Positions 9,647 to 42,500 of a stretch of DNA of 64,000 nucleotides are shown here, piece by piece. Source of the DNA: Felis catus. Its lineage: Eukaryota. The notes below the pieces were generated by a model. The model ran no database searches. It was not told where the DNA came from and saw nothing but the letters and a program-made list of their open reading frames with translations. Both the position numbers and the translations under genes were made by a program. Location of the stretch: positions 10,168,001 through 10,232,000 of the forward strand of contig NC_058383.1 of assembly GCF_018350175.1 (NCBI RefSeq), read 5' to 3'. Numbering within the stretch: position 1 is the first letter of the stretch; every line of letters begins with the position of its first letter.

Positions 9647-9648
<2 letters not shown>

Positions 9649-11690: not shown

Positions 11691-11779
11691 CAGAGCCTTC
11701 ATGTTCAAAACACCTACAAATAGTATATTGTCTAGATGCACGTGTGTATACAAAAAGTATTTTTTAGCAAAGCGAAGGG

Positions 11780-12831: not shown

Positions 12832-12863
<32 letters not shown>

Positions 12864-14164: not shown

Positions 14165-14199
<35 letters not shown>

Positions 14200-15780: not shown

Positions 15781-16237
15781 GGAGAATAATGAATTTAAAA
15801 ATTGAACCAGGGAGAAGATGAAGGGTCCCCTTTGTAGGGTCAGCCCCTGGACGTCCCGGGCAGATAGTAGGTGCTCCATAAATTAAAACCAAGGGAGCAT
15901 TTCCAGAAAGAGAAAACACATCGCGGCTGCTGTTTTTGGAGCACTGACCGGATGTCAGGCTTCATGCGAGACACTTACATCAAGTCACACCCTTCAACTA
16001 CCCATTTTACGGATACTATAATTGAGGCTCAAGGAATTAAGGAATTTACTCTTGGTCACACAGGAAGTAGCAGAACTCAGAAAGGGATCCAGGTCGGTCT
16101 GACTCCAAAGGTAAAGTCTAAAAATAGACCTTAAAAATTATTAATTTTATATCAAAGTTTTCAGACTTACTAAAAACATAAAGAATAATACCGTGCATAC
16201 CTGTGTACCACGACCGGCTTAAGAAATCAAACGATCA

Positions 16238-16749
16238 GGGTGCCTGGGTGGCTCAGTCGGTTAAGCGTCCAACTTCCGCTCAGGTCATGATCTCACCGTT
16301 TGTGGGTTCGAGCCCGGCATCAGGCTCTCTGCTGTCAGCACAGAGCCCACTTCAGGTCCTCTGCTCCACTCTCTCTGCCCCTCCCCTCCTTGTTCTCNNN
16401 NNNNNNNNNNNNNNNNNNNNNNNNNNNNNNNNNNNNNNNNNNNNNNNNNNNNNNNNNNNNNNNNNNNNNNNNNNNNNNNNNNNNNNNNNNNNNNNNNNNN
16501 NNNNNNNNNNNNNNNNNNNNNNNNNNNNNNNNNNNNNNNNTGCCATTGAACTTCCCTTGGTCCCTCCCTGACTGCAACCTTTTTCTGCCAGACAGCCATG
16601 CTCCAGAATTTGGTATTTATTGTTCTCATGCTTTTCCTTTGTACATATCTCCAAGCATTATGAAGTTTAATTCTGTTTGTTTCTTTTCTTTAAATTTTTT
16701 AAAATGTTTGTTCATTGTTGAGAGACAGAGAGTGAGTGGGGGAGGGGCA

Positions 16750-16800
<51 letters not shown>

Positions 16801-16927
16801 TCCAAAGCAGGCTCCAGGCTCCGAGCTGTCGGCACAGAGCCCGACACGGGGCTCGGGCCCACGAACGGTGAGATCATGACGTGAGCCGAAGTCGGACGCT
16901 TAACCGACTGAGCCACCCAGGCGCCCC
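16238..16927. mobile_element. Two Can-SINEs (16238-16397 plus, running into gap; ~16690-16927 minus, containing (CA)n 16751-16797)
   Basis: SINE heads/tails read directly. Confidence 0.85.
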
Positions 16928-17214
16928 ATACTTTTGCCTGTTTCTAAACTTTGTGTAAACAGCATTACACTTGATGAACTCTTCCCAGGTTGCCTTTTCT
17001 CAATTAGTGCTGTTTGTGGGATTCACCCAAAGGGTCGTGTGCACTATGATTTGCTCCTGTATTTGGTGTCTAGGGCAAAGGGGTGACTGTACAAAGGCTC
17101 ACCAGTTCCTTTGCCGTTCTTCTGGGGTTGGACGTCTGGGTTGTTTCCAGTTTTCCGTTCTTACAAGTTAGGGCCACCGTGAACATTCCCGTTCCCCAAA
17201 TTCCTAGGAGTTTG

Positions 17215-17697
17215 CTTTAGTTTCCTTTCGCAGCTACAACAAATTACCTAATTAGCGCCTCGAAACAACGCGATATTCTCTTACGGTTCTGGACTCACGA
17301 GTCCAAAATGGGTTTCACTGGGCTGAAGTCAAGGTGTCAGCTGGGTCATGCTCCCTCCAGAGTCTGGAGAGGAAGATGCGTTTCCTTTCCTTCTCCAGCT
17401 TCTAGAGGCTTCCATTCTGTATCTCGTGGCTTCTTCCTTCGTCTTCAAAACCAGTGACGCAGTGTCTTCAGATTCCTCTCTGACTCTGGCCCTCTGTTTC
17501 CGTTACCAGCTCCTCTAATTCTCACCCCCCCACCCCCGCCTCCCCTCTATAAGGACCTTTGTGATTACATTGGCCCACCCCCCGTCTCAAGATCCTTAAC
17601 TTAATCACATCTGCAAAGTCCCTTTTGCCTTGTGAGGTAACATATTCAGTTTCTAGGGTTTAGGCTGTGGACATCTTTGGGGGGCACTACGCTGTCC
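17215..17697 (-). mobile_element. MLT1-type (MaLR) LTR
   Basis: acaacaaattacc..aagtcaaggtgtcagc..ttaacttaatcacatctgcaaagtcccttttgcc..gtggacatctttggggggc. Confidence 0.75.
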
Positions 17698-18055
17698 AAC
17701 ATGGCAGGGACGTGATACGGGGATCTTTGAATGACGAGCTTGCCAGAATGCTCTTGGAGCCAATGATTCTCTCTCCCGCTGGCAGGACACGAGCATTCCT
17801 GTTGCTTCCCATCCTCACCAACGCTTGACGTTATCTGACGTTTTAATTTTTGTCGCCCAATGGCTATGGAATGTCTGGGGTCTGACTGCAATGTGGTCAA
17901 GAAAGAGATCGTGGTCAATGGTGGTGAATGTGAAAAAGAACAGCCCTGGCTCAGACCAGTGACTTCCAAGTGGTGAGTAGGGGGTGAGGTCAGAGTGAGT
18001 CGAGGAATTAGGAGGGTGAGGAAATGGACGCAGGGAATGAAGTGTGGAGGGGACA

Positions 18056-20699: not shown

Positions 20700-21500
20700 G
20701 GAGAGTCCGCGCCAGGGGGAGGGGGGGATTGGGGGGGCGTGGTGAATGCCGGCCGGAGCAAGGGTGCGGGGAGAGAAGCCTCGGGTACCCGCCTGGCGGC
20801 AGGAGGATGGGTTTGCCGGGAGATCGCGGGTGCGGGAGGCGAGGCTCTGCCCCGGCAGCCCGGGGTGCGGCCCGCCCCCTCCCGCCCCCTCCCGCCCTAC
20901 CCCCAGCCCCAGCGCCGCGGCCCCTTTAAGAGCGGGCGGGGCGCCCTCTGGCGGCTGAGCGGCGCGCCTGGCCGGAGCCAGAGCCGGNNNNNNNNNNNNN
21001 NNNNNNNNNNNNNNNNNNNNNNNNNNNNNNNNNNNNNNNNNNNNNNNNNNNNNNNNNNNNNNNNNNNNNNNNNNNNNNNNNNNNNNNNNNNNNNNNNNNN
21101 NNNNNNNNNNNNNNNNNNNNNNNNNNNNNNNNNNNNNNNNNNNNNNNNNNNNNNNNNNNNNNNNNNNNNNNNNNNNNNNNNNNNNNNNNNNNNNNNNNNN
21201 NNNNNNNNNNNNNNNNNNNNNNNNNNNNNNNNNNNNNNNGGGGCGCGGGGGACGGGCCGCGGCCTGCCGGACCTACCGACCGACCAAAGGGCCGCGCGGG
21301 CCGGGCCGCGGGGCCGCGGGAACCTGGCACGTCCGAGTGGGCCCCGCGGAGTCGCCCCCGGGGGAGGGGGCGCCCGGAGCCGGCCTGGGGCGGGTGGGGC
21401 GCCGGAGACCCAGGGAGGCGCCCGTGCACCCCCGGGATGGCCGCGAGGCGTGTCCTCCAGCGGATGCTCCGGGGAGGTGTGTTCCGGGGACAGGGGGCGG
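20700..21500 (+). promoter_or_regulatory. VPS37D: CpG island / VPS37D promoter; exon 1 (about 46 codons) inferred to lie in N-gap 20988-21239
   Basis: Very GC/CpG-rich, with GC boxes and TTTAAGA at ~20924-20930 just before the gap. Exon 2 starts in phase 0 and no start-bearing exon is visible. Confidence 0.75.
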
Positions 21501-22730: not shown

Positions 22731-24240
22731 GTGAGGGACATCTGGGAGAACTGGCTGTGGCGGGGGGGGCAGCTGGCCATCCGGCTGGTTGGCCTTGGGG
22801 AGGTGCTAGGCTCTGAAGGGCAGGACGTGGGCAGACCTCTTCCCTGGGCGAGGCTTAGGGGTCCTCCTCCTGGAAGACTGAGTTGCGGAAGTGAGCAGTA
22901 AATGAGTAGAACTGGGGGCCCTGAGTAGGGGAAGGAAAGTGGCCTGGGGTGCTCCAGGGGACACAGCCCCTGCTTCCTCTTTTGCACTAGGACGGGGACA
23001 GAACCCTGGGAGGGGGGGAGGTTCACAAACTGATCCCATGGGCAGTGCACAGATAAGGACACTGAGGCTCCAGCGAGAGGCATAGAGTCACACACAGGGT
23101 CAGTGAGTGTCAGGATCGGGCCCTGGGGCTCTGGCCTGTCTGTCCTAGGCCATGGGTCCCGAAGGCAGGAGCTATTTACTGTGGTCCCTCTGTGGCCTTC
23201 AGAGGAGAGCATGCATCGCTGGAGCCCCCACTGCGCACTGGGCTGGCTGCAGGCAGAGCTGGAAGAAGCTGAGCAGGAAGCTGAGGTGAGGGGAGGGGCC
23301 GCTGCGCCTGGGGACAGGGCGGGAGACCCAAACTATCATCACCCCCCCCCCCTTCATTCTCACATGGTAGGGTTGAGAGCCCCTCCTCCAGGAAGCCCAC
23401 CTGGAGTGCCTGGCCCCGAGGAGAGCCCCGCTACACTGCTGTCCGCATTGGACGGCAAGGCTCATCCTCACCACCTGTGACTGTCTCAGTGTAGGACAGT
23501 GTAGACTGGGTCCCCCGAGGAGCTGGGACAGACTTCTCCAAGCTTGCCGGGTTGGGAGCGCAGTGCTGAGTTGAAGGAGGTAGGGGAGGAGGGGCCTTGG
23601 CCCTGGACTTGAGAGACACCTAAGTTTAAGTGTGTCCCCATCTCTGATTCTGCCTCGTCTTCCGCCCAGTAGGTCTGGTGACAGTGAGGAAACCAAGGCT
23701 TGAGAGTAGAGGACATGTGTCCGCTATCCCTCAGCTAGCCCCAGGCAGGCCCAGGCCACAACTCCGGTGCCTCATCTCCCAGCTGCGGGGTGGTGGCCCC
23801 TGGGAGAGATTCGGGGAGGGAGGGAGGGCGGTCTCCGGGGGTGCGCTTCTCACACGGGCTCGGCCCTCCCACCCCAGGAGCAGATGGAGCAGCTGCTGCT
23901 GGGGGAGCAGAGCCTGGAGGCCTTCCTGCCCGCCTTCCAGCGCGGCCGCGCCCTGGCCCACCTGCGGCGGACCCAGGCGGAGAAGCTGCAGGAGCTGCTG
24001 CGGCGCCGGGAGCGGTCTGCCCAGCCAGCCCCCACCGCCCCCGCGGACCCCCCCAGACCCTTCCCCGCCGCGGCCGTCCCGCCCACCGGGGCCGCCCGGG
24101 GGCCGCCGGCAGTGCCCCGGAGCCTGCCTCCCTTGGACTCCCGCCCCGTGCCCCCCCTGAAGGGCTCCCCCGGGTGCCCCCTGGGCCCGGCCCCTCTGCT
24201 GAGCCCTCGGCCCTCGCAGCCGGAGCCCCCCCACCGGTAG
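22559..24240 (+). CDS. VPS37D: VPS37D, ESCRT-I subunit (exons 2-4: 22559-22730, 23203-23285, 23878-24240)
   Basis: Spliced translation FQGLQLEREACLASNHALAKENL...EESMHRWSPHCALGWLQAELEEAEQEAE/EQMEQLLLGEQSLEAFLPAFQRGRALAHLRR...PEPPHR*: Mod(r) domain plus Pro-rich tail. All introns GT-AG with consistent phases. Confidence 0.95.
23203..23285 (+). CDS. VPS37D: VPS37D exon 3
   Basis: ttcag|AGGAG...GCTGAG|gtgagg; 83 bp. Confidence 0.93.
23878..24240 (+). CDS. VPS37D: VPS37D exon 4 (coding part)
   Basis: cccag|GAGCAG...CACCGG TAG; 120 aa + stop. Confidence 0.93.
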   Translation, partial: EQMEQLLLGEQSLEAFLPAFQRGRALAHLRRTQAEKLQELLRRRERSAQPAPTAPADPPRPFPAAAVPPTGAARGPPAVPRSLPPLDSRPVPPLKGSPGCPLGPAPLLSPRPSQPEPPHR

Positions 24241-24938
24241 GATCCGGCGTACGGCCCCCCGGTGGGGGGCCCANNNNNNNNNNNNNNNNNNNNNNNNNNN
24301 NNNNNNNNNNNNNNNNNNNNNNNNNNNNNNNNNNNNNNNNNNNNNNNNNNNNNNNNNNNNNNNNNNNNNNNNNNNNNNNNNNNNNNNNNNNNNNNNNNNN
24401 NNNNNCCGGAGAGCGGGCCGGAGGTGGGGTGGGCAGGGTGTCTCTGGCGCTGAGGAAACTCTGCCTTTTTTTCTTCCCCGGCTGGGGCCTCCCGGGTAAT
24501 GGGCCAGCCCCAGTGAAAGGACTTTCTGCCTGGGCGCCTGGAAAGGTGCCTGCTTCCCCCCCCGGGGACCCTGCCCAGGGGGCCGAAGCACCCTACCACT
24601 CCACTGGGCTGGCACAACGGGCGCCGGAGCGCCTTCCATCGCGTCCTGCTCCTACCTTTCCCCAGTTCTGGGGCCCACAGCCTAGGAGCCAGGTGGTCAG
24701 ACCCCAGCTGCGGGGCCGGGGACACCATGGCCCTGGGGCTACTCTGTGCCCCACTCATGCTCCGGTCGCTGGGGCAAGGTAGGCCAGGGGCTCCTGACCT
24801 GCACAGATGAGAGTGGGCCATCCCCAGGAAAGACCATTCTGTATTTTTCTGTCCCCGTCTCCTTAGAATGGAACCTTTTTGAGGGCAGGTCCTTGTCTTT
24901 GTATGTTCTGTCCCCAGCCCCACCTCCCAGGGGCCGTC

Positions 24939-24944
24939 AATAAA
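24939..24944 (+). terminator. VPS37D: VPS37D polyadenylation signal AATAAA
   Basis: First visible AATAAA downstream of the stop (~700 bp; a gap at 24274-24405 is unseen). Confidence 0.7.
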
Positions 24945-26169
24945 TGTGATGATGAGGATGACGATGCTGCCCGACTCGTCTCTGCTCCCTCAACCAGCCA
25001 CTCTGCCTCTGCCGTTGCAGCCTCCACACCGGAGTTCCTGTGCTTCCTCCTCTTGAGATGCCCTCCCTTCCTTTCTGCCTGTCCAAAGCCTAGCTCCTTC
25101 AGGTCCAGCACTGCTGCTGCCTCTTCCGTGAAGCCTTCTCTGATTACTGACTGGGAGTCTTTGCTAACTCTTAACTTCCCAGCACTTCTGGCCAGAAGCA
25201 CACTCTGCTCCACCTCTGTTCTCCCAACCGCCTCACCCGTATGCACCTTCTCCTCCTGGGCTGCCTGTAAGCCCAGTCAGGATGGTGCCTGCTCCTGCTC
25301 TGGCCGGCCAGATGACCACCTCCGCTGAGGAATGGAGGGCTTCTATAAGGCTGAAGGTATTGGTCTTCAGCCAGGGTGAATACTAGGTGACCAGCTTGGC
25401 TGGTGAGTGTGGGACAAGAAGTTAGGAGAGCAGAAACAGGCTGTGGATCAGCTTAGGTCAAGCCTAATGAGATGAAGTTTCGCAGGGAGGCATGGAAGGT
25501 CCTGCAAACAAGAGGGGGCAGAGTGCTGTAGAAGCGAGTGTGATCTTGGTCCATGTTAATAGGGATAGAACCGTCTAGAAAGAGTAAAGTATTGGGTTGG
25601 CTCTGCTTTTCACCGAAGTTTTACACTGTAAGAGGGACCGACCCACCAAACTACCGCCTTTGGTCTCCTCAGAATGTCCCTAGTGTGTATGATGAGAAAG
25701 AGGATTGGGACTAAATCCCATGATGAGTAGTTGAGGCATCTGGCTACAAGTGAGACAGTTAGCCTCTGAATCTCCAAGGGCTAGAGATGTAGAGCTGGAG
25801 GTCAGAGTCAAGACCAATGGTGGAAACCACAGGAAGAATGAGGACCAACCACAAAGATGTGTGAGCAGTACCCCAGTGACTGCTTGATGGGAGTTTTAGA
25901 GATGTAAGCAATGGCTGGAGGGACTGGCTCATTTGAGCCTTCCAGAGCCCTTCAAGTGCAGGCAGGCAGAGGTATCCCTGCCAGGGGCCCAGCCAAAGCA
26001 CACACAGATAGTGCCCACTTGAGAAGCTCTACCCCACACTGGCCTTGGTTCCCCTACTGTCCTTGCTGCCAGCACTTGAACTGCTGGGGGCTGAGGGACA
26101 CTGGAACCACCAGGTACCTGCCTGAGATGACAGAAGACTGAACAACTTTGGAAGACCTCCCACATTCTC

Positions 26170-27095
26170 AGCACAGCCTAGGGCAAGGTGGGCCCCCCTT
26201 GTCTTGGCTTTCCTTTCCTGGTCCAGTTTCCAGGGTTGTTCGTTTGCAACCAAAAGGAGAAAAGGAGCTAAGATTGGGCATGCCTGAATCCTCCTCCACT
26301 ATTGTGAATTGGGGAGAAGGCTCTAGAAGGCACAGGCTAATGTCCGCAGCCTAGTAGCTCAGCCTCCCCTCCCCAGGGCTGGTAAGTAGAAACAGGAATG
26401 ACCCAAGGGAGGATCTGAGAGGGGAAGAGTTAACAAGGGAACTAGATGATGTCTTTCAAAAGTCTTACACACCCCTTACCTCCCTCAAAGGGTTCAAACT
26501 CAGTTTTAGAAGGGGTACGGAACGAGGTTCTTTGGTGTTCAGCTCCAGCATAAAAGATTTGAGGCAGGTGGGTACGGATACTGACAGAGTAGAGTGGGCT
26601 CAGTTCTGGGCCATGGTAAAGTCTTGGATGGTAAAGAGTTGGATGGTTAATTAAACTTCATTAAGCCCCCTGCTTGAAAGTACATGGAATGTTCTGGAAG
26701 GCTCTGGAAGGTTCCAGGTGGTCTGGGCACTCTCTGCTGCCAGACAACTTTTGGAACTTTCTGTTGTGGGGTTCCCGGCACCCAGGGAATGTTCCTGGCT
26801 GCTGCACTCCTCTTTGAGAGAGTACGAACTTGAGAATCTAAATCAAGGGGCCCATGAGAAAGGTCTCACCTATTACAGACCATCAGTGCTTTCACAAACC
26901 AAAAAGAAAAAATTGTCCAAAGAACAAAACTTTTATCTCTTTTTGATAAAAAACAGTTCCCAGGGGTTCCTGGGTGGCTCAGTCGGTTAAGTGTCTGATA
27001 CTTGACTTTGGCTCAGGTCATGATCTGATGGTTAATGAATTCGAGCCCTGTGCGGAACTCGCTTGGAGTTTTCTCTCTTCTCTCAAAATAAACTT

Positions 27096-27144
<49 letters not shown>

Positions 27145-27630
27145 TTACCACCATTTAAGAAAGTCTGTTATGTGCATACCCTTGTTTGGGAATCACTAGC
27201 TTTTGAGTATTTTCCTAAGCTTCCCTCCTTCTCAAATATAAAACATAATACCATTTTTTGAGCCAATCAAGTCTTACTGAACTGAGCAGGCCTGAACCAG
27301 AGTGGGCTCAAATCTTTACCACTGAATTGTGGTGTGGTCACTGCAAAGTCACGGCTAAGAACTTGCCCCTGACCTCTAAGTCCAGAGAGAATCAAATGGT
27401 TTTTAAGAGACCAAGTTGGACTCGCTGCTGGTTTATCCCAACTTATATACAAGGATTTTATACAAAAGATTGAGCGCGAGTGCAGGAATTGATGCTACTG
27501 TACCAAAGGACCTCTGGCTTTGTCTAGGACCTTGGCCATTGCTGTAGACTTCTCAAAAGATCCTTCTTGTCCCACAATGAAAATAAGGTTTACACTCTGC
27601 CTCCCCGCTTAAGTGTGAGCTCTCAAAACA
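26170..27630 (+). repeat. Diverged direct duplication, copy A (interrupted by partial Can-SINE + (CA)n at ~26961-27141)
   Basis: Co-linear matches to 29240-30480 at ~3.06 kb offset, e.g. caaaaggagaaaagg, aattggggag..ctagaaggca..taatgtcc.cagcct, catggaatgttc, cccatgagaaagg, gaatcactag, ggctcaaatc.ttaccactgaat, cctctggctttgt. Confidence 0.85.
26686..26795. promoter_or_regulatory. Heat-shock element cluster A
   Basis: gGAAt-gTTCt-gGAAg-gCTCt-gGAAg-gTTCc (26686-26715; six in-phase inverted nGAAn units, five perfect), plus gGAAc-tTTCt (26753-26762) and gTTCc-n10-gGAAt-gTTCc (26771-26795). Confidence 0.7.
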
Positions 27631-27645
27631 ACATATGATGTAGCT

Positions 27646-28135
27646 CAGGGGTCTGCAAACTCAAATGTCTGCCAGGGCTAGGAAGGTCACAGAGGTGCAA
27701 AGCAGTCCATTTCCACAAAGAAATACAGCCTCCCTCATTTTTTTTGGAAATGCATGGTTTTTTTTTTTTTCTCCATCTCGACAGACATGGAATATAGACA
27801 CTTCTCTATTATGAGCAAAATGTCCAAGTGTGTAGATCAAGGCCTTTTACATTTCCTGTCTGCCGGTGGGAACACAGTGAAATGGGGGGCTCTGTCCTGT
27901 CTCAAAGGCAAATGTTACCGTTTCTCCCACGTGGTAGTACACTCGGGTGTGTGTGTGAGGGCAATGGCAGCACGTTTTCTCATTTTTTTGAGACAAGTCA
28001 GAATTCTAGATTTTTATACAGTCTCCCAAGATTTGAAAGTTGGCTAAAGTTTTTTTAAGACACCGTGCCAACCACAGCCAAACACTGTGTGCAGGTTGGC
28101 TATGTGGCCTGTGACCCACAAATCTCAGCCTCTCC
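27646..28135 (-). mobile_element. MER102-like hAT-Charlie DNA transposon fossil
   Basis: caggggtctgcaaactcaaatgtctgcc at left; agaattctagatttttat..aaagttggc..aaacactgtgtgcagg..tgtggcctg at right (family by eye). Confidence 0.55.
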
Positions 28136-29717
28136 TTGGTCCTCCTGAAACAGGCTTTCTTTTGTTTAGTAGCAGCCCCCTCCCAGGACTGAGGGTGTGA
28201 ACGCTGAAGGGGCCAAAGCAGGATGGAAAGGCAAACACACCTCAAGTCTGGTTAGAGGACCCCAGGTTTGGACAGGCTTAAGAGATGGTGGTGAGATGGC
28301 TAGATCGTGAAGTGACGCTATGACCTCATAGCAAATGGTGAAGATGAGTTCTGTGCACCTGCTTCTTGGGCACAACAGCACCGAGTATTCTCAGTATTTG
28401 CAAGTTCAGAGGACCAGACTCAGGTCACTCTCATCCTCAGAGGGACCCTCAACTGCTTTGCACAAACCCTATGGCCACCGAGGCCACAAGCTGGGCCTGA
28501 GAACTAAGGCACTGAGCACAGGTAAGGCGGGCCTTCTCCTATGATCCTGATCATAGGTAGGTGACAGTGTGTGACCTTGTCACCAGCTGAGGAACTGAGA
28601 GGAGGCAAAGACCAGGATAGAGCGCACTTATCTAGTGCACTGAATTCGAGACAGTGGACTGAAGTAACACCACCACTTACCAGCTGTCCTGTTTCAGCCT
28701 TTCTTCCTGGGATCTGGTGACCTTCCAGGAAGGTCCGAGATACACACCCCTTCCCCCATCCCCACCGTCATTTGCCCAAAAGGGAGTATGATGGCCGCTC
28801 ACTTGGGTTCCATCCTTGGCACCTCAGCTGTTGGCTGTAAGGACTATATACACGTGTATAAAAATGACCAGAGAGGCCACACACCGGCCTAAGGTAGGCT
28901 CTTCTTCCTCATCTTGGCTCAGCTGGGATCACTATGGAAGGCAAGGTGTGCCGAGTGAACGAAATGCCAGAACTTCAGAGGGGAAGCAAGGAATCCTGCT
29001 CCCTCAGCACTGGGATCTGTAACAGATCATTTCACCCAGCAATAAACAAAATGCGACAAAGGGAAAAGTTTGGCTCAGGAGAAACGAAGTCCTGATCCAG
29101 TCCAAAGACGGTATACAACATACAGTTGCCTCCACAACCTGACTCCTGGCTTGTCGGCCGGGTCTCCCCATTTAGGCCTTGTGTGTGCTGCTCACTCAGC
29201 CTGATACTGTACTCGCAACCCCATCCCCACCCCAGGGAACACAGCCCAAGGCAGGCTGGGCTGCTCTGGTCCACCTCCCGTCCTAGGTCCAAACCTTCAA
29301 GGGAGTTTTGTTTTAGTTTGTGATCAAAAGGAGAAAAGGGACTCAAGTTGAGCGTGTCTGAGCCTTCTTCCATTATTAGGAATTGGGGAGCAGCCCCTAG
29401 AAGGCAGGGATAATGTCCACAGCCTGGTTCAGTCTCTCCTCTCCAGAGCAGGTAAAAAACTGAGAAAAGAACGACCTATGACGACCCTCGGGCGTGGGGG
29501 ACAGGTGGGAAGGGGTCTGAGGGTCCTTCAAAAATCCTCCTACACATCTCCCCTTCCATAAAGAGCCCAAACTCCATTTTAGGGAGAGTAGAGTAGGAAC
29601 TTAAGAGTTCAGCTTGGGGCTAAGAAAAACCTGAGGTAGGCAAGAAGGCACTGTTAAATATAGTGTGAGCCTGGTCCTACGCCTAAGGAGAGGCTTACAG
29701 TTGGATGATTAACAAAC

Positions 29718-29723
29718 TTTATT
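29718..29723 (-). terminator. DNAJC30: Candidate distal DNAJC30 poly(A) signal AATAAA (proximal ATTAAA variant at 31088-31093)
   Basis: TTTATT on plus strand ~2.1 kb past the DNAJC30 stop. Confidence 0.5.
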
Positions 29724-29746
29724 GACTACCCTGCTCAGAGTTGCAT

Positions 29747-29846
29747 GGAATGTTCCAGAAGTTCCACAGGGTCTGCCCCTTCCTCCAGTCTTCTGTAACT
29801 TTCTATCCTTCTCCATGTTCTGGAGCCCTAAGGAATGTTCACGAGA
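29747..29846. promoter_or_regulatory. Heat-shock element cluster B
   Basis: gGAAt-gTTCc-aGAAg (29747-29761, perfect triple), cTTCt-gTAAc-tTTCt (29790-29804), gTTCt-gGAGc-n5-gGAAt-gTTCa-cGAGa (29817-29846). Confidence 0.65.
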
Positions 29847-30578
29847 GAAAACAAACCTGAGGTCTACGTTAAGGAGCCCATGAGAAAGGGCCCAGCAATT
29901 TACAGACCACGAGTGCTTTTATAAACCAACCCAAAAGAACCCAATCCTTTTTGATAGAAACTTTGATAGAACCTTGCCCCAAATAATGCCAACAGCTTGG
30001 CTGAGAATCACTAGTTTCTGTGCATTTTGCTAAGCTTAACACTACTTGTTTGGATTTCGAGAAGAACTTGTTTTCCAAATATGAAACATAGTAACATTAA
30101 ATGTTCTTTTCAAAAGTACATACACCCCTCCCCCCAAACCAAGGCTAGCTGAGCTCACCAAGCCTGAATCCAAGCAGGCTCAAATCCTTACCACTGAATC
30201 GTACAGTCACTGCAGCCCCTGACCTCCAAGGCTGGAGAGAATGAAATGGTTTCCAAGACACCAGTTTGAACTAGCTGTGGGCTTATCCTAATTACAAGGA
30301 TTTCACATGAAAGACTGAATGCAGGATTTCTTACTCATATACCCAAGCACCTCTGGCTTTGTTTAGAACTTACGCTCACTTCTGTCCTCACCCTTGTGGT
30401 AGATCTCTCTTGTAAAGGCTTCCCTAGCTCGCAGCTTTACACTTAGGCCCCATGCATTAATGCTTAAGCACCTAAAATCTTACAGCCAATACATGTACCA
30501 CGCGCAGGGACTCAGAGTTGACAGCCTGACTTCTACAGCTCTTGCCAAGCGATGACCAACTGCTTAGAAAGAGAGAGA

Positions 30579-30777
30579 GGAGCGCCTGGGTGGCTCAGTG
30601 GGTTAACCGTCCGACTCCTGACTTTGGCTAAGATCATGATTTCACAGTCCTGGGATGGAGCCCCACATCGGGCTCCGGGCTGAACATGGAGCCTGCTTAA
30701 GATTTTCTCTCCCTCTCTGTCTGCCCCTCTCCAGGGCTCACACATGTGCTCTTAAAATAAATATTAAAAAACAAAAC

Positions 30778-30805
<28 letters not shown>
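30579..30805 (+). mobile_element. Can-SINE in DNAJC30 3' region
   Basis: ggagcgcctgggtggctcag head; A-rich and (GA)n tail. Confidence 0.85.
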
Positions 30806-30808
<3 letters not shown>

Positions 30809-31856
30809 GCCTCAGCCAGCTCTGAATAAAGAAATTTGTTTTCACCACAAGCCTCTTGTCCCTTGTACTACCGTATACCCTAAACTCAAGCAGGTTTCAA
30901 GGACTTGGCTTGTGGGGCTAAACAAGAGGACAGGCCACATTCAAGCGACTCAGCGTCCCAGCTGGCCGCTCTATCTCTGGGAGGGGATGGGCTGCACAGT
31001 TAGCAATGGGGCTGGCTGGCAAAGGAATGACCAAGAGACAGGCATACTGACTGTCCCAAGGATAAACCTAACTCTATCACATCATGTTTTAATCAATGAG
31101 CCCATTAGAACTGTAGATAATAAAGTGTGACAGGCCTCAAGAGAGCAAATGATTTGTTCCTCTGCTGTCATGCCCACAGAGCAATTTCTCCAAGGTCATA
31201 CACATTAGGTAAGTGTGGGCACAGGAACACTCAATTCCTTATGCTCCACGACCTTGCTCTCCCACTCCCACAGGCCATCAACAGAAAAGGGAGTGGGGTC
31301 TGGGGCTGATCATACAAGAATGGCAAGGTTTCCAAAGATCACAGTCTTACGTCAGGTCTCACCTGTGGCTGGGGAACTCACAGAAAGACAAGGTTCGTAC
31401 AACCCCACAATTTTTCTTTTGGCAGCCAACAATTGGTCACATTGCACGGTTCAAGGTTACACAGGAGCCCCACGGTACAAGCGCGGGGCAGGAGCAGACA
31501 ATTCTTGCTCCGAGCTTTACAATAAAGCCCGAGCAAGTGTTCCAGAAGCTGACATCGGGAAGGCAACCTCTGGAAGCAGGCACCCAAGGGACTCCAGAAA
31601 ACCCTTCACTCTCGGGCTTTTGGGACTCTTCTTCTTGGGGCCTCTTTCTTGGGCATCGAGAAGCCTTCTTTTCTGGACCGTAGGGGAGGGAAGCGTACGT
31701 GGACGGCTAAGCTGGGCGGGCGGGGAACAGGAGGGGGAGAGCAGTTTCTCCGGACCCCCGCAGAGGTAGACTATGGAAGGCAAAGGGTTCAAGAACACCG
31801 GAAAGGCCATTTTCTCGGGGCTGGCGGGGGGCTGCTCCCTTTCTTCCTCTCTCCTT

Positions 31857-32537
31857 TTAAAAACGAAAGCCCATGATGATGAAGACCGTGAGGAGAAGGA
31901 AGACAAAGGTCGCGTCTCGGGTATCGTCCCAGTGGAAGCCCTTCTTGGCCCGGTCCTCCTGCTGTTTGCGTAGGGCCTCTCGCCGGGCCCTGAGGCGCCG
32001 TTCACGCTCCAGCTGTTCTCCGTAGTGAGCTTGGTAGAAGGCGTCAAAGTCGAACATGGTGCGGTTGCCGCCCGCGGTGGCCTGACCGCGGCCGTGGGCC
32101 TGAGACGCAGGGGGCGGGGGGCGGGGCGAGCCGGTGTCGCGGACCGGCGCCTTGGGGGGCCGCACGCCAGGTCCGCGCAGGTCCTCGTCGCTGAGCAGGC
32201 CGCGGTCATACTTGCGACGCAGGGTGGCACTGCCCAGCACCACGTAGGCCTGGGAGATGCGCGTGAAGCGCTCGGCAGCCTCGGCGCTCCCCGAGTTGCG
32301 GTCCGGGTGGTAGAGGAAGCTCTGCCGGTAGTAGGCCGCCTTGATTTGCGCCTGCGTGGCTGTGGTGGGCACGCCGAGCAGTTCATAGAGCGCCGTGCGC
32401 GAGTATGGGCCGTCGCCCTGGGAATAAGTCCTCCCTTCTAGGCCCAGGCCGGAACCCGGGCTCTGTGGAGCGCCCCGGGCCAGCCACAACCCCCACAGCA
32501 ACCGCCGTGGCCACCTCAGATCGCGCTTGGTTGCCAT
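31857..32537 (-). CDS. DNAJC30: DNAJC30 (WBSCR18), mitochondrial J-domain co-chaperone, intronless, 226 aa
   Basis: ATG at 32537 in strong Kozak context (aagATGG). Arg/Leu/Trp-rich presequence-like N-terminus, J-domain with HPD (LYELLGV...LYHPDRN...YDRGLL), [15 protein letters not shown] motif, hydrophobic C-terminal helix. 681 bp. Confidence 0.96.
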
Positions 32538-32744
32538 CTTGAACGGGCCAGGCGGGCGGTGCGAGACTAACTGGCCAATGGGAAGCGCGCGTTGTTCGCA
32601 GCGCGTCGGCCCTCTAGCCAATCGAGTAAAAAGGGAGGCGGGGAGAAAGGTGGAGCATGCGTGTTTTTGGGCGGGAGCGGGGCCGAAGATATAAAAGCCG
32701 GGTTCCCGGAACACTAGCGTGAGTCTCGCGGCTGAGGCGTGGGG
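32538..32744. promoter_or_regulatory. Bidirectional CpG-island promoter DNAJC30/BUD23
   Basis: 207 bp between the two ATGs. CCAAT at 32575-32579 and 32618-32622, GC boxes, GCATGCG (NRF1-like) ~32655, TATAAAAG 32690-32697, TTCCCGGAA 32703-32711, YY1-type AAGATGGC over the DNAJC30 start. Confidence 0.85.
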
Positions 32745-32792
32745 ATGGCGTTCCGCGGGAAGAGACCGGAGCACGGCGGGCCCCCGGAGCTG
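32745..32792 (+). CDS. BUD23: BUD23 exon 1
   Basis: ATGGCG...GAGCTG|gtgagg; 48 bp. Confidence 0.93.
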
Positions 32793-35700
32793 GTGAGGCT
32801 TGCGGCTCGCGCGCGTCCTTCTCTCCTCCATTTAAGGCCTTCGCGTCTTGATTCCTTCTATACTACTCTTCTCTTTTTCTTCCCCGCAGTTTTACGACAA
32901 GAATGAAGCCCGGAAATACGTGCGCAAGTAAGGGGAGCCTAGATGTCGCGCGGCGTCGGGGTTCGGGGGCCGGCAAGTTACCCTGATAGCTGGCGCGACT
33001 TGGAAAGCACGCAAGAGTTTGGGGTGTTAGGGAAGGAAGGGACCCGGATTGATCCTATTTTTCACGGTGGGAAAGTCAACTTTTGAGTAAATCTCGGAAC
33101 CCTCTGGGCCTCGGTGAACTTAGCATTAAAATGGAGGTGAATCATGCGTACTTTTTCTAGGGGGTTCTCAAAGTTTCATGTGACAGCTTGTTTGAAGCAT
33201 GCGGTAAAATCAGCAGGGGCGGTGGATACGTGTAGGGGGAGTCAGTGCTGTTGAGGGGGAGGAAGTAGTATTCCCAGAATGCTGTGTGCCCCTGTTTGCA
33301 TTATCATTAAGGTCTTATGACAAGTGGTGTAGAATCTGAATTTCAGGGGGGGAGTTAACTTGTGTTAACCATAGAGTCATTTAACAGGTGAAGGCTAGAA
33401 CAGGGACTGCCAAGCCTGCTCTCTCTGATACCACTACTCTAGAGATAACTGTTCTCCACTTTTCCATTCAAATTAGAGTCCAAGACCAAGGCCAGCAGAA
33501 ATCTCTGATCCGGTTGTCATTAGCTTTTTTCCCAGCTGCAGAATTCAGTGCGATTCTTCCTCTTGATCTTGGGAAAGGCAGAGAACACCAAAGATCCGTT
33601 TTGTTAAGAGGCAGTATTCTCTTGAAGTAATGTTTGGTCTGAATGACTTACGGTGAAGAAAACGTTAACATTTTACCTGTTGAATGTTGATGATGTGTTG
33701 AAATCGGGTTAAGATATATTACCAGGATTATTGGGTTGGGTAAACTATTACAACTAATTTTAGTATTTCATCTTAATCATGGCACTAAGAAAGTCCCACG
33801 TGGCTTGCATTATATTTCTCATGGGTAGCAACTGCTATGGATTTTTGTTGTACTTTGTTGAGCTTTATACAGGACAGTAACTATGGTGGGTAATTTTTCC
33901 AGAAAACGTGTTTTTCAGTAATAAACATATCAGAACCACGTGGAGTTGAAAATAGGCAATAGTTAGTCATTAGCTAAGCGATTTATTCCCTTCACATCAG
34001 TTTTGCAGCTGGCAAAGTTGTAATTTGTGTCGCAGAATAACTTGTTGCTGTATTACATGGACTTTGGGGGTCGCTCTTAAATAGGTGTAGTTGGGTATGG
34101 TGACTGGGACGGTGCCTCAGGGTGACTGTGCCTTGTTCTCTTTCTCTTCTTTTGCTCTGAGCAATGTTTTAGCCCAGAACTCCTTTATCACTTGTGTTTT
34201 CTGCCTTCCCAGCTCACGGATGATTGATGTCCAGACCCAGATGACTGGGCGCGCATTGGAGCTCCTTTGTCTGCCCGAGGGTCAGCCCTGTTACCTGTTG
34301 GATATTGGGTGAGATCCTGGGGCCTAGTTCAGCTTGTCCAGGTGGAGGAGTGTCTTTCCTGCTCACACTATTGAGTTCCTGTTTTTATTGTGTCTTCCAG
34401 ATGTGGTTCTGGGCTGAGTGGAGATTATCTCTCGGATGAGGGGCACTATTGGGTGGGCATCGACATCAGCCCTGCCATGCTGGGTAAGTATGTGCTACTT
34501 AGCATTGGAGCAGACTACGCTTCATGTGTACGGAGCAGCTACGCGTCGTCTGTTTTCCTGACGTATTATCGTCCAATGTAGATGCGGCCTTGGACCGAGA
34601 CACTGAGGGAGACTTGCTTCTGGGGGACATGGGCCAGGGCATTCCCTTCAAACCAGGCACCTTTGATGGTTGTATCAGGTAAGAGTCTTCAGTTCCTGCT
34701 TTTAGTCCTGCAGGTCAGTGCTTCCTAAACTGGTTGTGCAGAGTTACACAGGAGACTTAGAAATACACATCCCTGGTTAGAGCAGCGTCCCCAATTACGC
34801 ATTTTTTGTGTTTTGAAACTGTCTACTCCTTTGATCATCTTGCGCTGCCAGGTTCAGGTACCACTGGTATAGATTATAGATTCTCTGTGCTTTGTTGGAG
34901 GGTGGTGGAGAGGTGGCTTCTTACATCTCTAGGAGCCATCTTGTGGGCCCCAGCAGCCATCTTGTTTCCTTCTTTTTGACTAACTGTAATGGAGAGTGGT
35001 CCGGGATTTGCCAGTTTCTTCAGTGGCTTAGTCCTTTTTGGGTTGTCTGGGTTAAGTTTTGAGCCTTTATGTAGTACTTCGATAACAGATCTTAGAACGT
35101 TGAAGTGACTGTTAGAAACATGAAGTTGTTCTTTGTGTCCTGTGGTAAATTGTTGATTATTTGGTGTATTCTCTGTTCTCTTTGTTGATGGGGTGGAGGG
35201 TAGGGGATAGGGGAAGAAGTCAGCTTTAATCCTGTGATTGTGGGTTGAGCATTAGGGATCTGGGTAAGCAGTAAAAATGTAGATTTGAAGATTTTCTTCT
35301 AGGGTAAGGGATTAGTTTACATCTGGGAACAAGAGTGGGGGAAATCATTTCAAGGAAAGCAATTGCTTTTTAGTAACGGTTGAGTGAGATTGTTCTAAGC
35401 TGCAGCAAACCAAAGGCCGGTGATACGGTCTGTATGTTTTAGGAGTAAGTAGTCACTTTTTATTTGTTTTTGAGAGGAGAGAGAGTATGGCAAACTTACT
35501 ACTTTTTTTTTTTTTTTTTTTTAGCATTTGTTATATGTAAGACATGGTACAAGGTGCTGCGAGGTTTGTGGAAATACAACACAGTCCTTTTAATTTTTTT
35601 TTTACTGTTTATTTATTTTTGAGACAGAGAGACAGAGTGCAAGTGGGGGAGGGGCAGAAAGAGAGGGAGACACAGAATCCGAAACAGGCTCCAGGCTCTG

Positions 35701-36540
35701 AGCTGTCAGCACAGAGCCCGATGCGGGGCTCGAACCCACGAACCGTGAGATCATGACCCGAGCCGAAGTCGGATGCTCAACCGACTGAGCCACCCAGGCG
35801 CCCCCCTTTCTTTTAATTTTTAACTCTTCGTGGTGTGTCAGGTGCTATAAGACATGGGCCATACAGCTAAACATGAAGTTGAGTGTGGGGTGTGACCAGA
35901 GTTGTGGGACCCACCAGAGCGGTGAAGAAAAGCTAGAGAGCACGGGGAAGCCTTGAGGAGGAGGAGGGGCTGGGGTTGTGCCTTGAAGGCTCAGAGGAAC
36001 TTGGATAGTCCTGGGACTGGGGATGGGGCTCTGAGGGAAGGAACAGTGTGAACAAAGGCACAGAAGTGCCCAGGGAAAGGAACCTGATAGATTGTGGGAA
36101 AGACCAGAGGTGTTTTTTTAAGTTTGTTTATTGAGAGAGAGAGCATGCATGCAAGTGCATGCAAGGAAAGGAGGGACAGAGAGAGGGAGAGAGAGAATCC
36201 CACGTAGGCTCCTCCAAGCTGTCAGCACAGAGCCCGACTCAGGGGCCGATCTCAAGAGTTGGACACTTAACCTATTGAGCCACCCAGGCACCTCAAGAAT
36301 GAGAGCTTTTTAAATTCCATGCTGAGAAGTTTGAGCTTTATTGAGTAATTGATGGGAAGCTAGGGAGTAACCAGATCAGAGCTGTATTTTGGGAAGATTA
36401 TTGAGTGGAGAGGAGAGGGGCATCTGGGTGGCTTGGTTGGTTGAGGGGCCGACTCTTGATTTCGGCTTAGGTCGTGATACCATGGTTGTGGGGCTAACCC
36501 CCGTGTCGGGCTCTGTGCTGAGCATTGAGCCTACTTAAGA

Positions 36541-39500: not shown

Positions 39501-42500
39501 TGAGTGCTGGGGGCTAGTGTATTGTCCGCGTTGAGCGGAGAGGGTGTTGGGGTGATGAGTGGGCCAGAGGAGTGCTCGGCTGGGTCACCGGGGCTTACAC
39601 ATTCTGCGCCTGTTCCTGGGAAGGAGTGTGGAGACTTGTACCTGTGCGTGGCTTTATGAGCCCAGCCCTCACTCTGTACTTTTCTGCTTTCAGGTTCTAC
39701 CTCTGTTTGTTTTCTGGGCCTTCGACCTTTCTGCCAAAGGTGAGGGATCCAGAGTTTGCAGGCTCGTGTCCTTTAGATTCCCTTCTTGTGGGGCTGGGCC
39801 TGGTACCTGTTGGAAGGACTCAGGGCTGGGTGGCCTGACCTTCTGGGGTGGGGCAGGTGGGTTGAGAGATCTCCAGGTTGATCTAAGAGCACGCTGGTCC
39901 CCGCAGGCCCTGACCGAAACTACTGATGAAGAGGAGGCCACGGAGTCTGCGTTCACGAGTGAGAGGTAAGCAGTTGTCACCCCTGCCTGGAGTGCAGGGG
40001 CTGGCTTCTGCTGGGGTCGTCCTACGTGGCTCTCTGCCTGCACCAGGTCTCTGAGGTTCAAGTGTGGCAGTGACACCAGGGTGGTAACAGTGGGGAACCC
40101 TGTGGGCCTGTGCCCGCTCCTGCCTCAGGCTGGGCAGCAGGGGCCCTTCTGGATGTCTGTGGACAGCCACGCAACCATCTTTCATTCCTCTCTCTGCCTT
40201 CCCTATTGCCAGGACTGCCGGGTTGTCTCCTCCCTCCCCGAGGCTGCCTCCGCCACCTGCATCCTGGCCTCTGTCCCCTCTTGGCTCTCCCTCCCCGCTC
40301 CTGTGTCCTCATGTTTACTCTCCTGGGTCATTCCCTCAGTTTGCAGAGACCCTGTTTCTTCTGTCTTCTCCCTAAGGGCCCTAACTCCCCCCGCTGCGCC
40401 CCCTCGTGCATGGGCTTCCCTCTGGGTCACATCTCATGTGTGCCTCTTGCTCCACCACACCATTCTCTCACTCCTCTCTGCTCCCACCTCCGTCTCCTCA
40501 TGGATTGCTTTTCTCAAGGCCACGCCAGCCTCTGTCTTGCCAAATCTGTGGCTGCTTCTCAGTCTGCTTTCTCTCTTGTCCTCCTCTTAACCTGCCTGTT
40601 CCTCGGGCACTGACGACAGCCAGCCACTCCCTCGATGCTTTTCCCAGTTCGGCCTCCTGCCTGCCGTCCTGGTTCTGTCCTCAGCTTGCTGGCTGTTCTT
40701 TCTCCGAGCACTCTGGGGCCCAGCCCGGACCCTTTCTCTCTCTGCTGCCTTAATCACCAACTCCAGGTTTGTTGCTTTGGGTTTATGCCTATGGTCTCAA
40801 CCTCACCTCCGTTTTCCTAACTGCCTCCAAAGTATCCGTACCTAGGCTTCCCACAAGTATTGGGAACAAAACCCAGCTCTTGTTTTTCACACCAAGACTG
40901 CCTTCCTCTGTCCTTCCCCACACAGTCATTCTTGTCTTTCTTACCTCACATCTGACCAGTCCTCTGTGTCTGTCCGGGTGACAGCCGGTCCCCTCCCCTG
41001 GTCTGAACCCCCACCGTCCTTGCCTGGAGTGTGGAAGTTGCGGCACTGGCCTCCTTCCACTTTGCCTCTTTGAATTGATTTTCTGCACAGCAGCAAGGTG
41101 AATTCTTTCTTTTTCCTTTAATTTTTGAGAAAGGGAAATCACACGTTGCCATTTATCTGTTCCAGTATCCTTGGTGAGTTCTCCTTACTCTTTATTTTCC
41201 TTACCACCTTTCACTGTTCTCAATCCTGTGTGTTTGTTTGCTTGCTGGCTCCCCAGCCAGAAGGGGGACTTGGGCTCTGCTGGTGTGTCCCTGATCCCAG
41301 AGTAGGGTCTTATTGTTAGTGAAAGGTTTCCGGTGTTTGCTGACTGGATAATTGATGGTAAGGCAGTGAAGGAGGTTATTTCTTAGTTCTGGTTGATGTG
41401 AGTGAGAAGCCTGAAGACTTTTAAGACGTTTAAGGGGAAAAATGCGCAGAGAATAGGTCAGGAAGGCCACAGGTGGTGAAGATCACAAGTGTGTTCCTTG
41501 TGTCCACTACAGAGTGGAGCCCCCTGACCTCCCCACGGTCATCTCTGTTAGCTTCCTCAGCCCGTGTTCCCCGTGGGGATTTGCGGGCCGGTGGGGGGGG
41601 GAGGGGCTCTCCTAGATGTTTTCTGCTCTAAGGCGCCCACCACTTGCTCCCAGCGAGTGGCGCCCTCTCCCACCTCACAGAGGATGTGCACGTGGTTCAT
41701 CCCCCTCCACCCACCATAGAATCCCTCTTGTCCTCACACTGGGGTCTACAGACGACATGTGCTAACTGTAAACTTAGGTAAGCGTCCGTTTCTTGGCTGT
41801 TCAGCGAGGGGATAATGCCAGCACCCGGGCAGCGTGTGGAGGAGCAGAGCGCGTGTGTGTGGGCAGACCCGGCACAGTGCCCGGCACGGGCCTGTCTCCC
41901 TGGCTCTGTGGGCACTCGCTCTGTGGGTCCTCGGCTCGGGGGGCGGGGGGGCAGGGGGCTGTTGTCCTTTGGGAGGATGATCTGGCCTTCTCGTGTTCTT
42001 GTCATTTTGTCTAATCATTCTTTTTTTTTTTTTTTTTTAACATTTTATTTATTTTTGAGACAGGGAAAGACAGAGCATGAACAGGGGAGGGTCAGAGAGA
42101 GGGAGACACAGAATCTGAAACAGGCTCCAGGCTCCGAGCTGTCAGCACAGAGCCTGACGCGGGGCTCGAACTCACGGACCGCGAGATCATGACCTGAGCC
42201 GAAGTCGGCCGCTTAACCGACTGAGCCACCCAGGCGCCCCTTTGTCTAATCATTCTTGTCAGTCTCTGACTTTCTCTGATGACTTGGTCCACCTGTGGCA
42301 TTTGCCACTACTGCCCAACTTCCTTCTTGGCACCTTTGGTCTGGGGCCCTCGCTCACTGCCCCCATCTGCTGCTCGTATCTGCCCCCATGACTCTTTCCC
42401 ATCATTACTTCTGTGGCTCCCAGCTTGCCACCCAGCTTGTCCTTCCTTACAGACCCTTGATCATTAGTCCTGTACTTCCAGCCCCCTGTTGGCAGCTGCC

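Follow-up and report, generated by a model that had tools for sequence, protein, structure and literature searches.

In the 64-kb window of Felis catus DNA (GCF_018350175.1) analyzed here, two homologous sequences of about 1.25 kb lie between VPS37D and DNAJC30, and one of them carries a heat-shock element (HSE) of six units that is not expected by chance. At the human site that matches by position, published data record both HSF1 occupancy and enhancer transcription brought on by heat. We favor, as fairly probable, an HSF1-bound distal enhancer located in an old local duplication and having low output on its neighbors. Such an enhancer is a known class of element, while the duplication that hosts it is apparently undescribed.

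Two diverged copies between VPS37D and DNAJC30

Copy A spans positions 26172 to 27625 and copy B 29240 to 30475, both on the plus strand and with approximate ends, those of A (~1.27 kb without the SINE that interrupts it) being placed by anchored extension tests. With the SINE cut out of A, the copies agree in 835 of 1173 aligned columns (71.2%), and the same SINE-free alignment contains 179 transitions and 159 transversions, for a K2P of 0.37. Tiles of copy A match copy B at consistent offsets, from 3026 to 3075 on the left of the SINE and from 2815 to 2872 on its right. The duplication is real, and the co-linear homology proposed for this region by the first-pass annotation is borne out. As homologues on the same strand of one locus, A and B are direct repeats, and in this sense the earlier term tandem duplication stands; they are not head-to-tail, since a 1.6-kb spacer (27626 to 29239) intervenes. 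The spacer has no detectable homology with either flank and no Pfam match in 6 frames, and its start (about 27646 to 28130) is presumably an old hAT-type DNA transposon.

Also as proposed, a SINE is present in copy A and absent from B. It is a fragment on the plus strand at about 26962 to 27141, with an (AC)22 tail and near-duplicated flanks, which we take to be a Can-SINE (carnivore SINE); it shares 81% identity over 63 nt with the SINE at 30578.

Extension of the homology into the flanks of the copies was not above a null made of real segments of the window (P 0.37 on the left, 0.33 on the right). Homology of the left flanks, which would make a 3-kb repeat unit, had P 0.03 against shuffles and was rejected, being reached by 27% of real segments. 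A third, older copy at ~31020 to 31623 (score 155, P 0.013 against shuffles as the best of 8 comparisons) was likewise rejected, since 33% of real segment pairs reach that score and a profile of A and B gives nothing outside the copies at E <4.5. Neither tile searches nor this profile found a further copy of the unit in the window.

A coding exon or pseudogene was discarded, with no Pfam family in any of 18 frames of A, spacer, and B (E 0.1) and no period-3 signal over 16 gap-free blocks (P 0.60). A known structured ncRNA was discarded as well, since the two Rfam matches at gathering score in the window both lie outside 26 to 30.5 kb. The old duplication holding an HSF1-type element appears to be new: in the literature on DNAJC30, VPS37D, and 7q11.23 that is accessible without subscription, we found no description of either duplication or enhancer.

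Heat-shock elements of the copies

At least three contiguous inverted nGAAn units, the canonical form of an HSE, are present in cluster 1 (HSE-1) of both copies and lacking in clusters 2 and 3 of both. As first described, HSE-1 of copy A (26686 to 26715) is an array of six units in phase and that of copy B (29747 to 29761) a perfect triple. Of the six units in A, five are perfect and one carries a single mismatch; in B, the triple is followed by a TTC shifted by one base from the phase. The perfect three-unit HSEs, at 26687 to 26699 in A and 29748 to 29760 in B, occupy equivalent places in the copies and are the only two perfect GAAnnTTCnnGAA matches in the 64 kb (shuffle mean 0.56, with at least two in 11 of 100 shuffles). 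The six-unit pattern occurs once in the window, against a shuffle mean of 0.02 and at least one occurrence in 2 of 100 shuffles. On a phasing score devised for this analysis, the array of A reaches 16, the top value in 40 block shuffles being 12. HSE pairs are also in excess: the 2690 bp of the copies contain 9, where 1.5 are expected, and for copy A by itself the P value is 0.0014. Six nGAAn units give room for two HSF1 trimers.

The three-part module said to be kept in both copies is overstated, being retained in its first cluster and only partially in the others. Cluster 2 consists of two units in A (26753 to 26762) and of a broken TAA plus TTC in B (29795 to 29804). In both copies, cluster 3 has two adjacent perfect units, with a single TTC placed 15 bp upstream of them; in A (26771 to 26795) it reads as a TTC, two degenerate units, and a perfect GAA-TTC pair, and in B (29817 to 29846) as six phased positions with 3 perfect. 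The latter, previously taken for an extended array, has a phasing score of 8 that 39 of 40 shuffles reach. Clusters 1 and 3 are 100 bp apart in A versus 85 bp in B, and A has an extra triple HSE with one mismatch (26315 to 26329) which is absent from B.

GAA/TTC units that belong to pairs were preferentially kept between the copies, 7 of 8 versus 14 of 38 lone units when counted from A (Fisher P 0.012) and 5 of 5 versus 16 of 40 when counted from B (P 0.017). The two tests share one alignment and are not independent, and the clusters were chosen with both copies in view. Within the pair, HSE-1 is not the best-conserved stretch, its identity being equaled in 40% of 30-column windows. All nine core positions are preserved in 35 of 675 gap-free 13-mers, which gives the shared triple, taken by itself, a P of ~0.05. 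The array of A doubles as a microrepeat, with 2.7 copies of a 10-bp unit; removal of one 10-mer from A and addition of one base to B produce an identical four-unit frame. The GGAATG common to both copies is presumably also a TEAD-type motif, and 4 of the 10 GGAATGT sites in the window are inside HSE clusters.

The 3' end of DNAJC30 and the neighboring genes

The coding sequence of DNAJC30 (31857 to 32537, minus strand) is a single exon for 226 aa, with its best PDB match in 2YUA (E 2.8e-49), titled 'Williams-Beuren syndrome chromosome region 18 protein'. In convergent orientation, the last exon and 3' UTR of VPS37D occupy 23880 to 24960 on the plus strand, with the stop at 24240 and an AATAAA at 24939; this gene was named from synteny and a Mod_r match under the Pfam cut-off (E 0.0011). 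The bidirectional DNAJC30/BUD23 promoter (32400 to 33000) contains no GAAnnTTC or TTCnnGAA pair, in line with the earlier observation that it has no comparable HSE array, and the segment 20300 to 20988 contains none either.

Copy B probably corresponds to the distal part of the DNAJC30 3' UTR together with the adjoining 3' flank. It holds the sole minus-strand AATAAA between 24800 and 31900 (29718 to 29723), 23 nt from its HSE-1 and at the distance expected of a poly(A) signal: from the DNAJC30 TSS there are 2634 nt with the SINE excluded, versus 2534 nt for the annotated human transcript. Judging by strand and distance, this is probably the DNAJC30 poly(A) signal, with an ATTAAA at 31088 as the alternative. 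The counterpart in copy A is AATGAA (26657 to 26662, minus strand).

Human data at the matching positions

In K562 cells, an HSF1 target site of the class 'dTRE' is recorded at chr7:73088746-73089853 (hg19, as all human coordinates here), with an HS_only dTRE at 73089018-73089489 (PMC5557961). In MCF7 cells after E2, an HSF1 peak flagged HSE+ lies at 73089112-73089520 (PMC8709578). Measured from the end of VPS37D to the DNAJC30 TSS, the human peak is at a fraction of 0.25, copy A at 0.23, and copy B at 0.63. From position alone, we infer that copy A and the human peak are orthologous; the unequal size of the interval, 8.8 kb in human versus 4.7 kb in Felis catus, counts against this match. No HSF1 site occupies the place expected for copy B among the 1295 K562 sites (PMC5557961) or in the MCF7 table (PMC8709578), so the proposal of a duplicated HSF1 enhancer module agrees with the human data for A and not for B. 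Close to where the left end of B would be expected there is another HS_only dTRE (73094109-73094851; PMC5557961), and HSF1Base has mouse Dnajc30 as a direct HSF1 target with no position given, which could reflect binding nearer copy B in mouse. The main text of a preprint on heat-shock PRO-seq in dog (10.1101/2025.03.20.644285) mentions neither the three genes nor HSE or HSF1.

The response of the neighbors was looked up for DNAJC30, WBSCR22/BUD23, and VPS37D in K562 at 30 min of heat, where gene-body transcription is 0.51x (DownLC), 0.67x (DownHC), and 1.17x ('UnReg'), respectively (PMC5557961); none of these three genes is activated. Heat increases promoter-proximal Pol II 4.9x for VPS37D and 1.9x for DNAJC30. 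U2OS arrays after heat give 1.30 for WBSCR22, 1.18 for VPS37D, and 0.82 for DNAJC30; under dominant-negative HSF1, DNAJC30 is at 1.04 while HSPB1 drops to 0.29. The human interval thus has the peak and the heat-only dTRE that the first-pass annotation suggested looking for, but not the induction of genes, and stress control of DNAJC30/BUD23 or VPS37D by the element is unsupported. An HSF1 site at the matching human place with no induction of its neighbors looks like an ordinary distal stress element. The Hsp40 nature of DNAJC30, put forward as a link to HSF1, makes a weak link to heat stress, since the protein is a J-protein of the mitochondrial inner membrane.

Proposed history and alternative explanations

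We suggest that a 1.25-kb piece of the DNAJC30 3' region was duplicated locally at about, or before, the human-carnivore split. By parsimony, the ancestral piece would have had an HSE of probably four units with a minus-strand poly(A) signal 23 nt off. Copy B would have stayed in the 3' end of DNAJC30 and retained AATAAA, with a one-base slip reducing its HSE to three units. Copy A, free-standing, would have acquired AATGAA in place of AATAAA and gained one 10-bp repeat, reaching six units and, with them, space for two HSF1 trimers. Its HSE-1 is the likely core of the enhancer: under stress, HSF1 on copy A would recruit Pol II and give rise to enhancer RNA, in human data with no increase in productive transcription of VPS37D, DNAJC30, or BUD23.

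It is unlikely that both copies work as HSF1 modules and act from the 3' side to induce DNAJC30/BUD23 or VPS37D, an induction perhaps limited to certain tissues or to stresses like mitochondrial misfolding. The perfect triple in each copy, the preferential retention of paired units, the lack of an HSE pair in either promoter, and the small U2OS increases of WBSCR22 and VPS37D are consistent with this possibility. Enhancers bound by HSF1 can act on genes up to 100 kb away (PMC9226494), HSF1 has a role in the mitochondrial unfolded protein response, and HSF1Base lists human DNAJC30 and VPS37D, like mouse Dnajc30, as direct targets with regulation 'N/D'. However, the K562 gene bodies, the indifference of DNAJC30 to dominant-negative HSF1 and its decrease in U2OS, and the empty place of B in both human tables argue against it, and the paper on HSF1 in this mitochondrial response does not name DNAJC30 in its main text. 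The gain in paused Pol II could be read in its favor, but such an increase is general in heat shock.

Improbable too is an LTR origin, in which an old minus-strand retroelement with an internal deletion left B as its 5' LTR and A as its 3' LTR, with HSEs and poly(A) signal arriving with the element and used later by the host. Direct repeats of 1.25 kb flanking a unique spacer suggest this arrangement, as do a minus-strand TATA box in B (29917) followed ~200 nt on by AATAAA, both changed in A. Near the right end of both copies there is TTTACA, with a minus-strand purine run beside it in A (such runs are found at 17 of 1026 regional TGs), but the homology continues ~35 bp beyond it (P 0.008), so it is not a clean LTR end, and the left end has no TG. 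Among 105 TG/CA pairs, a single 5-of-6 target-site match was found, away from the homology ends, although decay at this age could mask such a duplication. The 18 frames contain no gag, pol, or env remnants at E 0.1, the window has no additional copy, and the HSEs stand between TATA and AATAAA rather than 5' of TATA. HSEs carried by Helitrons are known in Caenorhabditis, according to the part of PMC6927752 at hand. Since a retroelement origin remains among the candidates, it adds doubt to the distal-enhancer explanation.

We consider doubtful a broader scenario in which the duplication split a unit of HSE plus poly(A) signal, leaving A as a free six-unit HSF1 enhancer and B as a DNAJC30 terminator with an HSE. 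The two would jointly place DNAJC30 under HSF1 from the 3' side during mitochondrial misfolding, in neurons, or in heat recovery, through promoter contact or 3'-end choice.

Coupling of HSF1 to 3'-end processing, another suggestion of the first-pass annotation, is unsupported, with one suggestive anatomical feature. The HSE of B would recruit symplekin/CstF64 to DNAJC30 cleavage and polyadenylation, protecting or shifting 3'-end choice in stress. This is very unlikely: the perfect triple does lie beside the only minus-strand AATAAA, and the transcript length agrees with human, but both human tables lack an HSF1 site at the place of B, the signal at 29718 is a candidate with an alternative at 31088, and the HSF1-symplekin/CstF64 complexes cited in the passages of PMC5740759 at hand concern hsp70 mRNA. 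Hardly credible, finally, is a dead duplication with a chance triple inherited twice, lengthened in A by slippage and sharing at most TEAD-type GGAATG binding, since the microrepeat, the 5% of 13-mers retaining nine core bases, the unremarkable conservation of the HSE window, and the GGAATGT sites agree with it but stand against a human HSF1 peak with HSE and heat-only dTRE at the corresponding place in two cell lines, in a genome where the K562 list holds only 1295 such sites.

Significance and comparison with known systems

The locus provides a sequence-level account of a catalogued human HSF1 site; of the initial claim that the element had not been described, the part on the duplication apparently holds, but the human site was already recorded as heat-activated. 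It also offers a natural experiment with sister sequences, A apparently bound and heat-transcribed with six units, B apparently neither, with three units by a poly(A) signal, and this contrast lends itself to testing what makes an HSE work as an enhancer. DNAJC30 is a repair chaperone of mitochondrial complex I and a gene of recessive LHON/Leigh disease. Should the element prove to tune this gene under mitochondrial stress, it would qualify as a candidate non-coding modifier of DNAJC30-linked optic neuropathy in the Williams-Beuren interval, although the expression data speak against such tuning in acute heat shock.

The closest system is that of the HSF1-bound heat-induced dTREs (Vihervaara et al. 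2017, PMC5557961), which likewise have a canonical HSE in an intergenic position; the human site matching by position is one of 446 HSF1-bound dTREs there, present only after heat, and the passages of that paper at hand do not discuss the locus. Here, in contrast, an old local duplication surrounds the element, which lies in one copy, while the other appears to include the poly(A) signal of a gene, and binding in the carnivore is predicted. HSF1 enhancers driving nearby genes (Himanen et al. 2022, PMC9226494) are similar in binding away from promoters and in neighbors whose promoters have no HSE, but Flnb, B4galt1, and Hspb1 are heat-induced via HSF1, whereas the three neighbors here are uninduced in K562. 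The Helitron-borne HSEs of Caenorhabditis are also repeated DNA with HSEs, as described in the available part of PMC6927752, whereas here there are two copies at one locus with no transposon hallmarks found. Distal HSF1 peaks are frequent, with 16,461 in heat-shocked MCF7 cells, and only modestly tied to nascent transcription (bioRxiv 10.1101/2022.12.14.519647), as in the present case. Unlike those low-output sites, the matching human site is heat-transcribed and present in two cell lines, which places it in the smaller and more robust set of HSF1 sites.

Organization of the locus

The two homologous units, copies A and B, lie in the 7-kb gap between the converging 3' ends of VPS37D and DNAJC30. 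VPS37D, with a weak Mod_r match, approaches from the left side, with its stop codon at 24240 and an AATAAA at 24939. On the minus strand, the coding sequence of DNAJC30 occupies one exon (32537-31857); in the PDB it matches the human WBSCR18 J-domain best (E 2.8e-49). BUD23 (WBS_methylT match near 44300) runs in the opposite direction from a promoter common to both. Five runs of N, 865 bases, are present (1147-1296, 16398-16540, 20988-21239, 24274-24405 and 62788-62975), and distances across VPS37D are approximate since two of them fall inside this gene. The SINEs of the window are presumably of carnivore type. Four of them are read as tRNA-like by ARAGORN (13512-13597, 13957-14040, 35714-35799 and 42150-42235; 35715-35799 also by Rfam), and these calls are most likely heads of tRNA-derived carnivore SINEs, not genes. 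A full-length Rfam match to SCARNA20 (43703-43833, plus strand, 121 bits, model 1-130 of 130) apparently sits in a BUD23 intron, upstream of the WBS_methylT-matching exon. Since the named human SCARNA20 is, as we assume, in another host gene, this match could be its paralogue or else a related H/ACA RNA.

An old duplication, not head-to-tail

Self-BLAST, tiling and alignment agree in placing copy A at about 26172-27625 and, in direct orientation, copy B at about 29240-30475. Once the SINE of copy A is excised, the alignment has 835 identical positions among 1173 columns (K2P 0.37), and the duplication proposed in the first-pass annotation is real. It is not tandem in the head-to-tail sense, given the 1.6-kb spacer between the copies and flanks of which neither aligns above random real segments. 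Each copy would have accumulated about 0.18 substitutions per site, which under neutral substitution rates would place the duplication around the time of the last human-carnivore common ancestor. No third copy survived testing. Within the unit there is no Pfam family in any of 18 frames, no 3-base rhythm (P 0.60) and no Rfam match.

Immediately past copy A, the spacer at about 27646-28130 looks like an old DNA transposon, which we take to be a hAT-Charlie (MER102-like) element. A 5' splice-site-like G/GTAA is kept at the equivalent place in both copies (26381-26387 and 29451-29457, plus strand), possibly the relic of a non-coding exon.

We prefer a local duplication as the origin. The main rival is that the copies are the relic of an LTR-internal-LTR element, as could be read from the minus-strand TATA box and AATAAA of copy B, in LTR-like order, and from TTTACA near the right end of both copies; however, homology extends about 35 bp beyond TTTACA (P 0.008), the left end is without TG, no convincing target-site duplication was found and the 18 frames hold no retroviral coding remnants in Pfam.

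Copy B probably forms the distal part of the DNAJC30 3' UTR together with the cleavage region, since it contains the sole minus-strand AATAAA of the 24800-31900 interval (29718-29723), and this signal lies 2634 nt from the estimated DNAJC30 TSS without the carnivore SINE, compared with 2534 nt spanned by the annotated human transcript (PMC5557961). The copy A counterpart reads AATGAA. An ATTAAA at 31088 is an alternative candidate. The consensus TATA box of copy B (29917-29924, minus strand), about 200 nt upstream of AATAAA, is altered in copy A.

Heat-shock elements in the two copies

Only two perfect GAAnnTTCnnGAA matches occur in the 64 kb (26687 and 29748), at homologous positions. Alone this is not rare (11 of 100 shuffles), but the six-unit array of copy A (26686-26715) is (2 of 100), its phasing score of 16 exceeding every value in 40 shuffles (at most 12). 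All three of the top-ranking phased arrays in the window lie within the copies, where heat-shock element (HSE) pairs are six times denser (9 seen, 1.5 expected). Three further HSE-like arrays, each with one mismatch, are found at 25567-25581, 26315-26329 and 28718-28742, and 6 of the 14 window arrays scoring at least 7 fall within 25.5-29.9 kb.

A three-part HSE module had been described in both copies. Its first cluster (a triple at 29747-29761 in copy B) stands, but the second, two units in copy A, is broken in copy B, the third is only two adjacent perfect units, and spacing differs between copies by 15-19 bp. The copy A array doubles as a 10-bp microrepeat; removing one repeat there and adding one base to copy B gives an identical four-unit element, the simplest candidate ancestor.

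GAA/TTC units in HSE pairs are retained between the copies more often than lone ones. From copy A, 7 of 8 HSE-paired GAA/TTC units are kept against 14 of 38 lone ones (P 0.012; 1 paired and 12 lone unaligned units set aside), and from copy B 5 of 5 against 16 of 40 (P 0.017; 2 and 7 set aside). Nevertheless, the HSE region is not an identity peak (40% of windows are equally high) and all nine core positions are kept in 35 of 675 gap-free 13-mers, so that selection on the pentamers is suggested rather than demonstrated.

Four other exact runs of 12-15 nt, at least as long as the HSE run, are common to both copies (copy A 26251-26265, 26850-26863, 27365-27376 and 27510-27523). One contains what we take to be a nuclear-receptor-like TGACCT half-site, and the shared GGAATG presumably also fits a TEAD site. 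Shared factors other than HSF1 may outweigh it in importance.

HSF1 binding and heat response in human cells

In heat-shocked K562 cells, the target-site list of PMC5557961 (supplement file 4, apparently Supplementary Data 3, judging by its column headings and the text; 1,295 rows, in an unexplained order not by chromosome) gives as its 32nd data row an HSF1 site at chr7:73088746-73089853 (hg19), classed as a distal transcribed regulatory element (dTRE). In oestrogen-treated MCF7 cells, an HSF1 peak with an HSE-positive flag is listed at 73089112-73089520 (PMC8709578). The VPS37D end is 2.9 kb and the DNAJC30 TSS 8.5 kb away from the human peak; the peak's fractional position of 0.25 is near that of copy A (0.23; copy B 0.63, with estimated window TSS positions), so we assigned it to copy A by position rather than alignment. 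The proposed HSF1 binding finds a positional human match for copy A, but not for copy B: no file-4 coordinate begins with 73090-73096 in K562 (PMC5557961), and the MCF7 table, from cells that were not heat-shocked, assigns no peak to DNAJC30 (PMC8709578). Among the matches listed, HSF1Base counts DNAJC30 and VPS37D in human (from Mendillo 2012) and Dnajc30 in mouse among the direct HSF1 targets, with regulation "not determined" for all three (PMC6888953).

The dTRE at 73089018-73089489 is flagged HS_only in K562, one of seven so flagged between 73086015 and 73094851 (PMC5557961, supplement file 3); the six others may be eRNA or read-through signal. The seven fill the human VPS37D-DNAJC30 gap, with four on the stretch from the HSF1 site to the VPS37D end. 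Such a series points to read-through or to a long eRNA induced by heat, which might run antisense to VPS37D.

Stress control of the neighboring genes, as proposed, is contradicted by acute heat-shock data. In K562 cells heated for 30 min, Pol II in the gene body was 0.51x for DNAJC30, 0.67x for WBSCR22/BUD23 and 1.17x (unregulated) for VPS37D, and promoter-proximal Pol II rose at VPS37D (288 to 1418) as well as at DNAJC30 (9384 to 17729; PMC5557961). U2OS arrays give 0.82 for DNAJC30, 1.30 for WBSCR22 and 1.18 for VPS37D (PMC4768219); with dominant-negative HSF1, DNAJC30 is at 1.04 while HSPB1 falls to 0.29 (PMC2981734). DNAJC30 is a mitochondrial inner-membrane J-protein (PMC12953747), not a cytosolic heat-shock Hsp40. 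HSF1 also acts in the mitochondrial unfolded protein response (PMC10284689, where the main text does not name DNAJC30), which leaves a narrow opening for control in another stress. As for the suggested coupling to 3'-end processing, the AATAAA of copy B is 23 nt from its triple, and PMC5740759 cites complexes of HSF1 with symplekin and CstF64, but neither human table lists an HSF1 site at the expected place of copy B.

Comparison with known HSF1-bound elements

The first-pass observation was largely right, and an apparent division of labor places the enhancer in copy A and the poly(A) signal in copy B. No published description of the duplication or of this division was found in the literature searched; the human counterpart is already catalogued in genome-wide tables. 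HSF1 enhancers are able to drive neighboring genes (PMC9226494), but the majority of distal HSF1 peaks have little effect (10.1101/2022.12.14.519647). The element behaves like, and probably belongs to, the HSF1-bound distal elements induced by heat, of which there are hundreds to thousands.
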